NCBI RefSeq assembly: GCF_044236515.1
Contig: NZ_JBIIGK010000001.1
Span: 816 to 64,815, forward strand
Length of the DNA: 64,000 nt
Direction of reading: 5' to 3'
Source: Phenylobacterium sp.
GTDB lineage: Bacteria; Pseudomonadota; Alphaproteobacteria; Caulobacterales; Caulobacteraceae
Shown here: positions 39,301 to 45,300 of the stretch, piece after piece
Position numbering within the stretch: position 1 is the stretch's first letter
Layout: every line of letters starts with the position of its first letter
Program-made: the position numbers

Positions 39301-42300
39301 CGAGGTGGGCGGTCACGATGATGACCACCTCGGTCTCGTTGTTCTGGTAGCCGGTGGACCGGAACAGGGCGCCGAACACCGGGGCCCGCGAGATGCCCGG
39401 CAAGCCGCGCAGGCTGTCGCTGAACTCGCGGCGGATCAGGCCGGCGATGGCGAAGCTCTGGCCGTTGCGCAGCTCGACCGTCGTCTTGGCGCGTCGGGTC
39501 GTCAGGCCGGGGATCCGGAAGCCTTCCAGGACGACGCTGTTGGCCGGGTCGAGGGCGCTGACTTCCGGCGCCACGGCGAGGTTGATGGTGTCGCCGTAGA
39601 CCGTGGGGGTGAAGCCGACGCTGACGCCGTACTGCTTGTACTGGATGGTGATCAGGTTGCCGCCGTTCTGGCCGGCCTGGGGCACCGGGACCGGAAACTC
39701 GCCGCCGGCGAAGAACACCGCGGTCTCGCCGGAGAGGGCGACGAGATTGGGCTCGGCGAGCGTGGAGGCGAAGCCCTTGCGCTCGAGGGCCTCGAACAGG
39801 CCCTGATAGCTCCAGTTGCCCTTCGCCTCGCGGCCCAGTAGGGCGGCGATGGCCTCGCTGGCCCCGGACGGCGGGGCGATGGTCAGCGAATGGTTGGGGT
39901 CCCAGAGCGCCGACAGGTTGGTCAGTCCCAGCTGCTGCAGGGCGCTGCGCTGGACCTCGGCCACCCGGACGGAGAGCATGACCTGCTCGGCGCCACGGAT
40001 GCTGGTGAGGTTGACCACCTTGCCCGGCGCGTACTGCTCGGCGAGGGCGGCGGCGCGGGCGGCGGCGGCCGAGGACGAGGCCGTGCCGGTCAGCACCAGG
40101 CCGTCGCCGCGGACGCTGAGGTCCAGCGCCTCATCGGGGATGACGTCGCGCATGGCGCGGCGGGCGCTGTCGACATCGTAGCCGACCCGCACCTCCAGCG
40201 TCGCCAGGGGCATGCCGCCGGCCCGGGGCATCACGGTCAGGCTGGTCGCGCCGGCCCCCGAGCCCATGACGTAGATGGTGCGCTCGCCCAGCGGGATGAC
40301 GTCTGCGACCTTCGGATTGCCGACCAGGACCTGGCCGATCGGCTGGCTGAAGCGGAGGATCCGCGAGCCGCCGGCGGCGACGGCCACCTGGCCGCCGTAT
40401 CCGGCTTCGTCGGGGGTGACGTTCTGGACGGCCGCGCCGATCGGGGCCGAAGCCGGTTGAGCCAGGACCGTCTGGGCGCCGGCTGCGTCGGAGGCGATGA
40501 TCGCCGTCGTCGCGAGCAGGGTGGTGAGAAGCTTGGCCAGGCCTTGGCGGCGGGCGTAGTGGGCGGATCTCATCGACGTCTCAGGCGCGTGGCCTGTCCC
40601 TGTTGGAGTTGTCCTGCCTCAGCCAACCTGCGGCAGACGGACGAGCTCGATGTCGGCTCCCCGGATGATCTTGATGGTCGGACCCGAGGGGGCGGCCGGG
40701 GCGCGCCGGACCCGCGGGCGGGCCGGTGCGGCGGCGGCCGTCTTGCCGAGGGCGAGGTCGGCGACCCGGACGGTGGCCGGGGCGAGTTCGTCCTCGCCGG
40801 CCAGCGGGTCGGCCGTGCCGCGCAGGGCCAGCGACAGCACGCCGACGTCGGCGGCCAGGGCCAGCTTCTGCGCCTGCTCGGGGGTCACCTCGATCGTCGC
40901 GGCCTTGGCGACCACGGGGTCGTTCTTGTTCTCGTTGGCGAGTTGGTCGACGGCGAGAACCCGGATGCTGCGCAGCAGGACATCGGTCCGCCGGTCGCTG
41001 GGCTCGGTCACGCCGGCGCCGTCGCCGCGGGTGATCAGGACGTCGACGAAGTCGCCCGGCAGGACGAAGCCGGCCACGCCGAAGACGTCGTTGACGCGAA
41101 TGGTGGTGGCGCGCATGCCGGTGCGGATGACGCCCGACAGCGTCGCCCGGCCGCCGGGGCCGGAGACCCGGCTGGCGAGCAGCGGTTCGTTGACGGCGAT
41201 CGGGCCGAGCGCCACGCGGCGCTGGGCGGTCACCTCGGCGATGGTCTTGAACGAGCCCTGCGGCTGAGCCGCGCTCGGCCAGGCCTGGACCCGCAGGACC
41301 TCCGGGCTCAGCACGTCGCCGAAGCCGAGCGGCCGGGTGGCGACCACGACCGTGGTCTGGTTGAGGCGCTGCTCCGGTTGCGGGCGCGCCGAGGCGATCT
41401 GCCTCAAGCCCCAGACGGTCAGACCCGCGAGGACCACGGCGACGGCGAGAAGGACGAAACCGATGTTGCGCATCTTGGGGCTCCGAATTGAGAAGAAGCG
41501 GGAGGCGGGCTGGGGGGCGGGCCCGCCTCCCAAAAGCGGCCTACGGGAGAGCCAGGCCGAGGTTGGCGACCAGGCCAGTCCAGCGACCAGTCACCCAGGT
41601 GCCGATCACGCCGACCGCGACCACCGCCACGGCGGTGATAAGGCCGATCAGGATCGAGTATTCGATCAGAGCAGCACCGCTCTGATCTCGTCCGAGACGG
41701 TCCTTGAGGTTTTCGATCTGCGAGGTCGCAGCGATGTAGGTCTTCAGCACGTCCACACTCCTTGGTTGAATTTTGCGATTGCTATTCAACTCACCGACCC
41801 CTGCTGGATCGATGTGCGGACGGTAGGGCGCGGCTTTGGCCGGCAAGGACGGCGCAGCCTGCGGAAAACGACCGATCATCAGCGAAAAAACGCTGTTTTC
41901 ACTTATGTTTTTTGCAGAGACGCGTGGCCGGAGAAGTTTTTTTGAATCCGCATTGCAAGCCGCTGTCTGCCATATGTTAAGTGCGGCTCTACTCTATCGA
42001 TGACTTCGCCTGCACTTGCGGCGCAACTAAGCGCCACAAGACGACGCGGGGCGCAGTTGCGATGAACAAACTCCAGCAGAATTGGCCGCCGGCCCTCCTC
42101 ATGGGGACGACAGGCCTGCCGCTCGACCTTCCCGGCCTGAGCGAGGTGGACGAGCGGCCGTCGGCGTTCGTCGCACCGGACCACATCGGGTATCGAGCGC
42201 TGCTCGGCGCGGCGATGCGGGCCGGTCCCGATTGCCGGGACCTGGGTTGGGGCGAGACCGGCGGAGCTCTTCGGCTCCTGCATCGTGAAGGCCTGAAACA

Positions 42301-45300
42301 GATGCCGCTGCGCCTGGCCCGCGGGGCCGATCCGCGAGCAGGCTGGGGCCTCGTGGACGCCATTACCCCCCTGGCGCTCGATGTCCTCACGGTGCTGATC
42401 GACCGTCTGCAAGCGCGCAACGTCGAGGCGGTTCTGATCGGCGCGAGCGAAATCCTGAGCGCCAAGCGGCGTCACTACTGCGGCGGCGAGCTCCTGGCCG
42501 TGCAGGCGCAGGTCGGGCGCGAGATTCTCGCCCTCGGCCAACTGGAGCTCGGCGACAGCGGGCCGCCGGCCCTGCGGGTGACGGAACTGCCCGGCAGCGA
42601 GAGGTTCGTGGTCGCCCTGGATCCGGATCTGCGGGCCGCGTGGCGCGAGGCGGCCTCCCATCGCATCGACGGCCGGATCCTCGCCTTCGACAACCGCGCC
42701 AACCGCGGCGCCGACCTGCTGGCCAAGAAGATCGGCCTCTATTTCAGCGCCGCCGGCGCGTCCGTGCGGCCGGTCCGCCGGCCGGTGCGGTCCATCCTCC
42801 ACGCGATCGGCGGCGACGCCCAGCTGAAAGGCCGGGCCGGGCGGCTGGCCGACCGGTTCGAGGAAGCCCTGCTGCGGCTCAGCGAACGGCGGGTGTTCGC
42901 GATCCGGCGCTGCGGCGCCGACGCGCCGCCGCTGGAGGATCGCAACAAGGGATGGATCAAGGCCTGGCTGAAGACCGAGGTGGTCGTCGCGCCCTTGGGC
43001 CCGGGCGGCGACGGCGCGTCGGTCTCGAACGGCGCCGGGCAAGGCCTGTCGCGCCGCTGAGGCGCCGGCTGGAGGCTGGATAATGGGCAGCCCGCATGGC
43101 GTGACGGTCGTCAGCGGGCTGCAAGTTGGGGCTGGATGGGCGAGACTTTGCCGCCTCGGCTTATGTCAATCAGCGGGACGCGAGAATGATGGTCGGCTGG
43201 ACCTGCTCATAGAGCGCGGTGACCATCGGCCGATCGATTTTGACCACGGCCTTTCCGGTCATCTCACGCCGGCATCTCAGGATGAGATAGCTGCGGCCCA
43301 GGTCGCGCAAATCCCGCTCGCCGCAGAAGACGCGGGCGGCGCGGTCGACGCGGCTGAGAACGGTCGCCGCTCCCGCCATCGAGGATGTGTTGACGTCACT
43401 GATCTTGACGACCATGCGGTCGTCTTGCGCCTGAGCGGCGGACGCACCGAGCAGCAGGACGGATGCTACCGCGCTGAACACCATCTTGGGCATCGTGAAC
43501 CCCTTTTGGATGGATTGTTTTGCGGGCGCCGCCCCCGTCAAAGGCGACGCGTCTATATACGCCGATCAGGCTTCGGCGGCGTTCACGAACCGGTGTTATG
43601 TCGACCATCTGACATGTGCGCGGCCGGCGCCGCTTCGGCGGCGTACGCCTCGCGCAGCTCGCGCTTCAGCACCTTGCCGATGGCGCTGCGCGGCAGGGCC
43701 TCGACGAACCGCAGGTCGGACAGCCGCTGGTGCTTGCCGAGGCGGGCGTTGACCTCGGCGCGCAGGGCGTCGGCGGCGACCGCGGCCTCAGGGCGGAGGG
43801 CGACGAAGCCGACCGGCGTCTCGCCCCATGCGCGGGAGGGCACGCCGACGACGGCCGCCTCCAGCACGGCCGGATGGCGCGTCAGCTCGGCCTCCACGTC
43901 GCCCGGATAGATGTTGAAGCCGCCGGAGATGATCATGTCCTTCTTGCGGTCCATGAGCACCAGGAAGCCGTCGGCGTCGAACCGGCCGACGTCGCCGCTG
44001 CGCAGGTAGCGCAGGCCGTCGGGGCTGCGCCACTCGATCTCCGCGGTCTTGGCGGGCTGGTTGTGATAGCCCGTCATCATGGCGCCGGAGCGCCCGACCA
44101 CCTCGCCGACGCCGCCGGGCTCGACTTCCGCGCCGTCGTCGCCGATCAGCCGGACGTCGTGGCCGGGCAGCGGGCGGCCGACGGTGTGCAGCTTGTCCGG
44201 ATGGGCGTGGGCCTCGAGCGCACAGGTGCCGCCGCCCTCGGTCATGCCGTAGAACTCCACCAGCCCGCCGGGCCAGCGGTCCAGCACCCGGCGCTTCAGC
44301 TCCGCCGGGAACGGGGCCGAGGTGGCGAACTTCATGCGGTAGGCGGTCAGGTCGAAATCGTCGAACCGCGGGTGGTCCATCAGCCGCTGGTACTGCACGG
44401 GCACCAGCATGGCATGGGTGACGCGATGGGCCTGCGACAGCGCCAGGAATTGTTCGGCGTCGAACTTTGCCATCAGGACGACGCAGCCCCCGGCCGCGAT
44501 GGTCGGCAGAAGCGACACCAGGGTGGTGTTCGAATAGAGCGGCGTCGACAGCAGGGTCACCGCATCGTTCGGATAGACCGCCCGCCGCATGTGGGCCCAG
44601 CGCATGGCGTGCGGCTGGCGGATGCCCTTGGGGACGCCCGTCGTTCCTGACGAATAGATGATGTTGAAGGTGTCCTCCGGAGCGATGTCGCGCCGGACCG
44701 GTTCCTCGTCGGCCAACCAGTCATCGAACGGGACGCCGGCGTCGGAGCCGTCGAGGCTGACTCGGCGGGCCGCGACCGCGCCGAGGGCGGGGCCGAGGTG
44801 GTCGGCGACCTGACGATCCAGGAACAGGACCTTGGCCCCGCTGTCGGCGAGTTGGGCCAGCAGGCTGTCGGGGGTCGAAGACGGCGCGAGCGGGGCGACG
44901 ACGCCGGCGGCGCGCAGGGTCCCGAAGAACGCCTCGAGATATTCGACCCGCGAGGCGGCGCAGATCGCCGCGACCTCGCCGTGGCCGACGCCGTCACGCT
45001 GGAGGGCGGCGGCGACCCGATCCATGCGCCGGTCGAGCTCGGCGTACGATACCGTCCGCGCGGGATCGATCGCGGCCGGCCGCTCGCCCTGCGTCTGCGC
45101 CCGGACCCGGATCAGGTCGGGCAGCGTGCCGAAATCAAGCGCCAGCAACTCGGCAGGGGTCATCAAGGTCTCCGGGACACGTCAGCTCAAGCGGCCGCAA
45201 GGCATAGCGGCTGACGGGCCGCAAGTCAGGAACCGCTAGGCCGACTCGTCGGCCGCGCGACGTTTCAGGGCCGTCTTGTCGATCTTGCCGATCGGCAGGA

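Follow-up and report, generated by a model that had tools for sequence, protein, structure and literature searches.

Genes and features at the locus

The window analyzed here, a stretch of 64,000 nucleotides, comes from a Phenylobacterium metagenome-assembled genome (MAG; 3.16 Mb in 259 contigs, ~71% GC) and covers positions 816 to 64,815 of contig NZ_JBIIGK010000001.1 (assembly GCF_044236515.1). Within it, a gene for a 332-amino-acid (aa) protein, here called the Rep-like gene, stands divergent from flp, the prepilin gene of a Tad (Flp) pilus cluster, across 311 bp. The predicted fold of the protein, its relatives, and a motif upstream from flp suggest that it is probably a DNA-binding regulator derived from replication initiators. 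The sequencing runs that hold the window sequence are of metagenome DNA only. The features concerned, in window coordinates, are as follows:

31304-41533, minus strand: remaining Tad cluster, with Pfam matches to Peptidase_A24, T2SSF (twice), T2SSE, Response_reg/ParA-like, TadE (twice), Tad, Secretin plus T2SS-T3SS_pil_N, and RcpC
41541-41750, minus strand: flp prepilin gene, 69 aa, leader ...RDQSG / AALIEYS..., an open reading frame (ORF) with 43-63% identity to the PF04964-bearing Flp of related loci
41751-42061, no strand: divergent flp/Rep-like control region, 311 bp, AT-rich for the genome
41861-41942, no strand: AT-rich tract (A/T runs) flanking the motif toward flp, 60-mers of 42-48% GC
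41943-41963, plus strand: degenerate copy of the family motif, GAATCCGCATTGCAAGCCGC, which includes the GANTC at 41944; a syntenic block in the same position and orientation as at other loci
42062-43060, plus strand: gene for a 332-aa protein of predicted Rep (tandem winged-helix) fold, from the ORF, homologs, alignment, AlphaFold2 (AF2) model, and Foldseek

The ATG at 42062 was taken as the start of the Rep-like gene because it leaves 36 residues ahead of a conserved PDH motif, in agreement with the N-terminal lengths of homologs; an alternative GTG at 41981 would add 27 residues, giving 359 aa. The flp start was placed at the second GTG, 7 nucleotides (nt) behind AAGGAG. The Rep-like frame is open over its entire length, and its GC content at third codon positions (GC3) is 0.87, versus 0.91-0.95 in neighboring genes. 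The protein is basic (isoelectric point [pI] 9.87) and soluble, with no evident signal peptide or convincing membrane segment; the single borderline hydrophobic stretch (residues 95-113, Kyte-Doolittle 1.73) forms a helix that is buried in the model, which is globular and confident. Searches of Pfam, NCBIfam, and PHROG returned no match even at E<=10, and a PDB sequence profile search was empty. A previous sequence-only reading of the window had described a 332-aa ORF without signal peptide or transmembrane segment, sharing with flp an AT-rich region of ~310 bp that holds a GANTC at 41944 and no iteron array, and had quoted six helical blocks. Each of these points was borne out: the blocks lie at residues 104, 126, 219, 242, 265, and 297, the shared region has 55% GC versus ~71% for the genome, its sole GANTC is present as GAATC, and no array or tandem repeat occurs in or near it.

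Two further ORF calls lie beyond the Rep-like gene. Directly downstream is a 123-aa ORF (43170-43541, minus strand) with an apparent signal peptide (…LLLGASAAQAQ) and no Pfam match, which is not kept beside homologs at other loci. A tRNA-Gly (anticodon ACC) called by ARAGORN at 43962-44042 (minus strand) falls within an acyl-CoA synthetase ORF (43583-45166) and is probably a false positive. Flagellar, ClpB-like, and tRNA genes are likewise found on the window contig.

A small, unnamed protein family

Homologs of the 332-aa protein numbered 10 in a set of 5.8 billion proteins, and 75 cluster representatives were found at E<=1e-3; all are unnamed or "hypothetical." The earlier description of the protein as an orphan therefore does not stand with regard to homologs, which exist, although it does with regard to names, as none has one. 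No description of the family was found in the literature searched. The family is small, unnamed, and previously undescribed, and its predicted fold is that of plasmid replication initiators. Its alignments contain the motifs PDHP..AL..AGP..GW, AKGxRRxGxER, FDHRxNRGADxLAKK, GRLADRFEEALLRL, and KGWxxxWL. Over 32 members, 47 columns are conserved at >=80%, and the window protein keeps 43 of them, deviating at A58C, R139Y, R144L, and H211N; these four deviations compare with a range of 0 to 8 per member across the family. The ratio of nonsynonymous to synonymous substitution rates (dN/dS) was 0.13 for the one unsaturated homolog pair, L013/L014, and 0.46-0.49 for the window gene against its nearest relatives, the latter unreliable with dS >1. 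As judged from these sequence comparisons, the family is under purifying selection. It is also rare: 2 of 401 sampled alphaproteobacterial genomes carry it, the window's own included, as do 3 of 37 genomes of the genus Phenylobacterium, and no other carrier was found among 400 genomes sampled across the phylum.

Longer relatives of 420-740 aa share the entire 300-residue body (hhalign profile-profile E 8.7e-57) and add a C-terminal XRE helix-turn-helix (HTH) domain, HTH_3, which is absent from the window protein. Homologs of the Hyphomonadaceae type (L016, L017, L019) have a conserved N-terminal W-x-C-P-T-C-R-L motif that the window protein lacks.

The predicted fold is that of iteron-type initiators

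The AF2 model, built from an 11-sequence alignment, was confident (pLDDT 82.3, pTM 0.81), with disorder at both ends only, and its order of helices and strands fits two winged helices behind an N-terminal domain. When the model was compared with the PDB by Foldseek, ranks 1-43 were all iteron-type initiators (RctB domains 2-3, RepE54, Pi, and a Rep-DUE complex), with E-values from 7.7e-4 (RctB domains 2-3) to about 4e-2 and probabilities of 0.82-1.00, nearly all 1.00; after rank 43 the probability was <=0.2. Target-normalized TM-scores of the initiator matches were mostly 0.45-0.62, with 0.32 for a dimeric RepE entry. In the viral structure library BFVD, proteins named "initiation of plasmid replication" and "replication initiator" were among the matches. 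The impression of tandem winged-helix, initiator-like architecture that the sequence-only reading had drawn from the helical blocks is thereby strengthened by the AlphaFold/Foldseek comparison it had proposed, which returned the iteron-initiator fold and not a non-DNA-binding one. Conserved Arg and Lys residues are located in model helices 214-230 and 259-275, which we take as the putative DNA-contacting helices. On this modeling, the relation to replication initiators is at the level of the fold only.

The gene belongs to one type of Tad cluster

From its distal end, the Tad cluster of the window (31304-41533, minus strand) runs tadV peptidase, tadC, tadB, tadA/cpaF ATPase, tadZ/cpaE, two TadE-like pseudopilins, tadG, a 93-aa lipoprotein, secretin, and rcpC/cpaB. 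In a survey of homolog neighborhoods, also proposed with the earlier reading, all 14 distinct loci of the short clade (clade A) with enough flank adjoin flp-rcpC-secretin-tadG, down to 26% protein identity. In these loci the gene is usually divergent from flp, as in the window. Their sources are Phenylobacterium, Caulobacter, Hyphomonadaceae, and further alphaproteobacterial MAGs, and some of the loci lie on chromosome-sized contigs of 0.5-3.7 Mb. Among the XRE-fused relatives, six of nine loci are in or beside tad clusters, and in one of these (L024) the gene forms an operon with tadG-tadE-tadE, lying directly upstream and overlapping tadG. At some loci one to three genes (GT-C-like membrane protein, PAP2, extracytoplasmic function [ECF] sigma factor, or GT87 enzymes) stand between flp and the Rep-like gene. 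The Rep-like gene lies at one border of the tad cluster, beyond which the flanks vary. None of the tad-linked loci seen contains integrase, excisionase, par, or transfer genes.

Several other features of these clusters were noted. Glycosyltransferase-type genes occur between or beside flp and the Rep-like gene at L001:6435-7883, L005:4386-5834, the P0006 locus, and L023:9673-11001; they include a 482-aa multipass membrane protein with a GT-C-like look and no Pfam match, as well as GT87-family enzymes. The gene for the 482-aa protein is absent from the window's genome. This gene content hints that pilin glycosylation genes may travel with this Tad type. An ECF sigma gene in L005 (7465-8004) overlaps the Rep-like gene start by 4 nt, and ECF sigma genes also lie near homologs in the P0006 locus, L012, L024, and L030; an anti-sigma role, considered from the overlap in L005, was dropped, as the pairing is not general and the window's contig has no ECF gene. 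The 93-aa lipoprotein-like gene (…LGLGGC…; 38560-38841, minus strand), between secretin and tadG, belongs to no Pfam family and is conserved in position and sequence (38-65% identity) in all related Tad loci. Past the other end of the cluster, ~0.8 kb beyond tadV, are tRNA-Gln/tRNA-Pro genes (30183-30256, minus strand, and 30393-30469, plus strand) with a class II aldolase gene in between. No direct repeat of this tRNA region was found beyond the Rep-like gene, and no integrase was seen.

A conserved motif in the flp control region

The control region (55% GC over the counted stretch 41750-42061, 312 bp) lies between flanking kilobases of about 70-74% GC, and the 60-mers within 41861-41960 (42-48% GC) are among the lowest in the window. 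Related loci have AT-rich segments at the same relative place. Neither a tandem or direct repeat array nor a full CtrA box occurs in the region, and it lacks a DnaA box with <=1 mismatch; a sigma-70 promoter scan gave no sites, and comparison of 41500-42300 with Rfam, under a lax cutoff, gave nothing credible.

Most tad-linked loci of the family share a motif upstream from flp, TGCC-NN-GTTGCGGAGG, in one orientation throughout. The distance from the start of its GTTGCGGA core to the flp start codon is 206-214 nt in seven loci and 165-293 nt in others, and in relatives the motif lies about 100 nt upstream from the Rep-like gene. In leave-one-out matrix scans of both strands of the 10- to 20-kb loci, the flp-upstream site was the best match in 10 of 12 short-clade loci, and in an alignment of the window with L009, L011, and L013, the motif is the main conserved intergenic block. 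Where the Rep-like gene is 2-4 kb off (L001, L005, L010), the motif remains with flp. Its core is a 5-3-5 palindrome (TCCGC GTT GCGGA) in L009, L013, and L014, with one mismatch in L011. Two direct copies 22 bp apart are present in each of L017 and L019, and the outer pair of the three copies in L016 has the same offset; 22 bp is the spacing of plasmid iterons. In the window the corresponding variant of GTTGCGGAGG is ATTGCAAGCC.

Some candidate sites were rejected. None of the sigma-54 (-24/-12), CtrA, LexA, FixK, and EcfG-type consensus sequences fitted the conserved motif by eye. The strongest motif matches elsewhere in the window's genome, within coding genes such as dnaN, were dismissed as chance, and a strong match in L026 was dismissed since it lies inside a regulator gene. 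Close to the flp start, at 41773-41789, a 17-nt segment pairs with the window motif in inverted orientation (71% match), but as a candidate second operator it was indistinguishable from chance.

The flp upstream regions of other loci have features of their own. L015 (8205-8235) has a perfect CtrA-type box (TTAA-N7-TTAA, within CGTTAAAACTTCGTTAAAAC) ~230 nt upstream from flp, and L018 has one at the corresponding position; in these two lower-GC alphaproteobacterial MAG loci, flp and the Rep-like gene are ~1.7 kb apart, with no convincing ORFs in between. The flp leader is conserved over ~270 bp among L017 (9381-9600), L019, and L016 despite saturated synonymous sites and, with its hairpin (GGGCG CACTC CGCCC) and extended polypyrimidine stretch, suggests that flp has a long structured 5' untranslated region in these three loci.

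Relatives in plasmid- and phage-type modules have related iterons

The three XRE-fused relatives outside tad (L047, L050, L051) form a separate, well-supported clade (clade C) and lie in plasmid- or phage-type modules, as follows:

L047: parA, a small gene, the Rep-like gene, five iterons of 21-22 bp, and a phage O-like initiator gene; iteron array at 6175-6442
L050: AlpA-like HTH gene, parA, parB, the Rep-like gene, and three iterons; arrays at 5733-5770 and 6120-6202
L051: XRE repressors, the Rep-like gene, three 22-bp iterons, and a DnaB-like helicase gene; array at 4347-4485

The clade C iterons, units of 21-22 bp and of 41 bp, adjoin the Rep-like relatives. The 21- to 22-bp units share CGAAGGGTGCGAG in L047 and L051, and ACCTCCG...GAGCAA is shared by the units of L050 and L051. 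In L047 the iterons sit just upstream from the separate O-like initiator gene, so that they cannot be assigned to one of the two proteins from L047 alone; L051 has iterons related to those of L047, and no O-like gene was called on its 5.7-kb contig. L047 also bears an XhoI-type restriction-modification pair, a transposase gene, and TIR-domain genes. Some other relatives (L035) are linked to neither tad nor par genes. In tblastn searches of 72,556 plasmids and 50,697 phages, no match to the Rep-like protein was found.

The motif of the tad loci resembles these iterons. A matrix made from tad sites only ranked the three iterons of L050 first to third (14.3, 12.1, and 10.4; next match, 5.8), while in shuffles the P value was 0.036 for a maximum >=14.3 and 0.014 for three hits. 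The L017 tad motif and the L050 iteron are identical at 15 of 19 positions. Because the tad matrix ranks the L050 iterons first, the flp-upstream element looks like an iteron kept from the mobile-element past of the family, and this iteron-like look makes it a natural candidate binding site of the Rep-like protein. An ancestry of the family in mobile-element replicons is likewise supported, at the level of sequence, by the sister clade in par/replication modules beside iterons.

A probable replication-initiator-derived regulator at an iteron-like operator

The fold was predicted, while the family, the synteny, the motif, and the likeness of the motif to plasmid-type iterons were computed; on this basis we favor, with some confidence, a replication-initiator-derived DNA-binding regulator that acts at an iteron-like operator in the flp/tad control region. 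From the same results we infer DNA binding by the Rep-like protein and control of flp, which could be activation or repression and may or may not work in the same way in this copy, with its degenerate site and long branch. A cytoplasmic, basic protein with two winged helices would descend from iteron-type initiators of mobile elements, and its lineage would have become a fixed accessory gene in one type of Tad pilus cluster. The protein may bind an iteron-derived operator in the divergent control region, which in relatives would be the motif ~210 nt upstream from flp, and, once bound, may control transcription of the pilin gene and probably that of its own transcription unit. Such control would resemble that of plasmid Rep proteins that repress their own promoters.

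The sequence-only reading had offered two possibilities for the gene, an initiator-derived transcription factor dedicated to the pilus and a relic replicon of an integrated plasmid that had carried it. The former is now the better supported, through the clade-wide flp/tad linkage, the XRE-fused relatives, and the conserved iteron-like motif. The latter is not supported as a description of the present state, given a chromosomal location, no plasmid or phage match, no iteron array or DnaA box, and purifying selection, although as a statement about ancestry it is upheld by the sister clade.

A number of observations weigh against the regulator interpretation. The likeness of fold is moderate (E about 1e-3, 6-14% identity), and no Rep Pfam family (Rep_3, RPA, TrfA, RepC) was matched by any of 32 members at E<=5. 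A second, equally confident model, of an XRE-fused relative, did not bring up the Rep matches again; its PDB top 50 were nearly all XRE-type HTH proteins, a result that neither confirms nor contradicts the Rep fold. Tad clusters without the Rep-like gene are common, with two more in the window's own genome, and only 3 of 37 genomes of the genus carry the gene. The motif was not found upstream from flp in six Rep-less tad loci, but these belong to more distant tad types, and its absence there is confounded with phylogeny. In the window the motif is degenerate, with three core bases changed and a matrix score of -1.4 to -4.8, and a matrix scan found no consensus site elsewhere in the intergenic region. 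The window protein replaces three otherwise conserved residues (R139Y, R144L, and H211N), and its terminal branch is the longest in its subclade (1.35 versus 0.37 in its sister). Alternatively, the motif may act as core promoter (-35-like TTGCGG) for the transcription unit running rightward, with a Caulobacter-type -35 (TTGACGS-like) as a possible reading, or the site of another factor; by analogy, a motif overlapping the -35 of a rightward promoter could fit RepE-style autoregulation.

Because of the degenerate motif and the long branch of the protein, function in this window is less certain than for the family. Either protein and site have changed together here, or this copy is losing function.

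A more far-reaching version of the regulator interpretation is that Tad islands captured the initiator family together with an origin remnant, so that distortion or melting of the AT-rich tract, as at an origin, would switch the pilin promoter, or pilin expression or local copy number would be coupled to replication, as with RctB at crtS. We regard this version as speculative and doubtful. If true, it would be a mode of pilus control for which no counterpart has been described, and it would clearly exemplify the conversion of a replication origin into a promoter switch.

Alternative explanations

The alternative that survives best concedes a function to the family and denies it to this copy, which would be drifting from use, its operator lost, a pseudogene in the making that exerts no flp control. 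The degenerate syntenic motif fits this, as do the long branch, the three replaced residues (two of them arginines), the apparent dN/dS of 0.46-0.49, itself unreliable at the dS concerned, and the slightly lowered GC3. However, the frame is open over its full length, the 43 retained columns place the protein inside the family range, the AF2 model is confident, and protein and site may have co-changed to a new specificity; we therefore consider a drifting copy unlikely.

Slightly less probable still is a DNA-binding role other than promoter-specific control of flp, such as anti-silencing of an AT-rich island, organization of the locus, or action at targets elsewhere. The upstream region of flp is unusually AT-rich, a ParB homolog turned anti-silencer provides a precedent in VirB (PMC3905869), and some relatives (L035) are unlinked to tad or par genes. 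Against such a role, the motif is short, specific, and at a fixed distance and orientation from flp, and the other matrix matches in the genome are in coding DNA and chance-like.

We think it quite improbable that the locus is a working or recently silenced replicon, in which the Rep-like protein, the iteron-like site, and the AT-rich tract would form the origin of an excised or plasmid-borne mobile Tad island or its decaying relic. Such a replicon would be in keeping with the iteron-initiator fold, with the sister-clade members in par/helicase modules beside iterons, and with an order of AT-rich tract, iteron-like site, and rep gene that resembles an oriV; the two or three motif copies at a 22-bp phase in L016, L017, and L019, the patchy distribution, and the position at the tad cluster edge, with variable outer flanks and tRNA-Gln/tRNA-Pro near the other end, would also suit it. 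Yet the window has a single degenerate site and neither an iteron array nor a DnaA box (<=1 mismatch), mobility and partition genes (integrase, excisionase, par, transfer) are missing from the tad-linked loci seen, and the plasmid and phage searches were empty. Homologs lie on chromosome-sized contigs, the island is not bounded by a direct repeat of tRNA ends, and the motif follows flp, not the Rep-like gene, when the two are separated. An intact ORF and purifying selection over deep divergence fit a relic poorly.

Least probable of all is a protein that does not bind DNA and uses its winged helices for protein-protein contacts in pilus assembly or localization, for although winged helices are able to mediate such contacts and the L024 gene shares an operon with tadG and overlaps it, the window protein has a basic pI (9.87), its conserved Arg/Lys are in the presumed DNA-contacting helices, relatives add an XRE DNA-binding domain and adjoin iterons, and the structural matches are specifically DNA-bound initiators.

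Comparison with known systems

With RepE (F), Pi (R6K), RepA/TrfA-type proteins, and domains 2-3 of RctB (Vibrio Chr2), the window protein has in common the predicted tandem winged helices and a basic character, and a short repeated or palindromic site just upstream from the gene itself is a further likeness to iteron initiators. Iteron initiators are also transcriptional autorepressors at an operator in their own promoter (for RctB, see also PMC5397143 and PMC8565311). The differences are considerable. The family does not belong to a Rep family (Rep_3, RPA, TrfA, RepC) at the sequence level, and the window gene is chromosomal and tad-linked rather than located on a replicon. The tad loci of the family have one to three sites, without an iteron array or DnaA boxes. 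The window protein has an extra N-terminal beta/alpha domain (residues 35-85), and many relatives end in a C-terminal XRE HTH that is absent from the initiators matched.

VirB of Shigella is a ParB-family partition protein that became a transcriptional activator of virulence genes (PMC3905869). The likeness lies in the reuse of a DNA-binding protein of plasmid maintenance as a surface or virulence regulator through a maintenance-derived cis site. VirB differs in its ParB, not Rep, ancestry and fold, and its function has been shown experimentally, whereas that of the Rep-like protein is inferred.

Regulators of Tad/Flp pili include PprB in Pseudomonas and VisN/VisR in Liberibacter. CtrA controls pilA in Caulobacter (PMC11264516). 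All of these resemble the proposed regulator in acting at the pilin promoter of a Tad-type pilus, and CtrA-type boxes lie upstream from flp in L015 and L018. They are response regulators or of the LuxR type, in contrast to the Rep fold predicted here, and none is a conserved divergent neighbor of flp with this fold. With XRE-family (HTH_3) regulators, the connection is that the longer relatives end in HTH_3 and carry no annotation beyond "XRE family transcriptional regulator"; the window protein has no HTH_3, and the shared 300-residue body does not have the XRE-family fold.

Significance

Tad/Flp pili serve adhesion, biofilm formation, and host colonization in many bacteria, and their locus-specific regulation is poorly known outside a few model species. 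With the proteins described here, one class of Tad clusters, that of Caulobacterales and relatives, gains a conserved, unannotated gene family. Culturable carriers exist (Phenylobacterium sp. LjRoot219, Phenylobacterium sp. LjRoot225 with locus L011, and Caulobacter sp. 17J80-11 with locus L013) and, together with the predicted fold and the candidate operator, make the hypothesis of an initiator-derived pilus regulator directly testable. The family would provide a traceable example of a mobile-element replication protein, possibly with its iteron, that has been reused for gene control; as such, it may bear on the relationship between initiators and transcription factors and on the evolution of the "widespread colonisation island."

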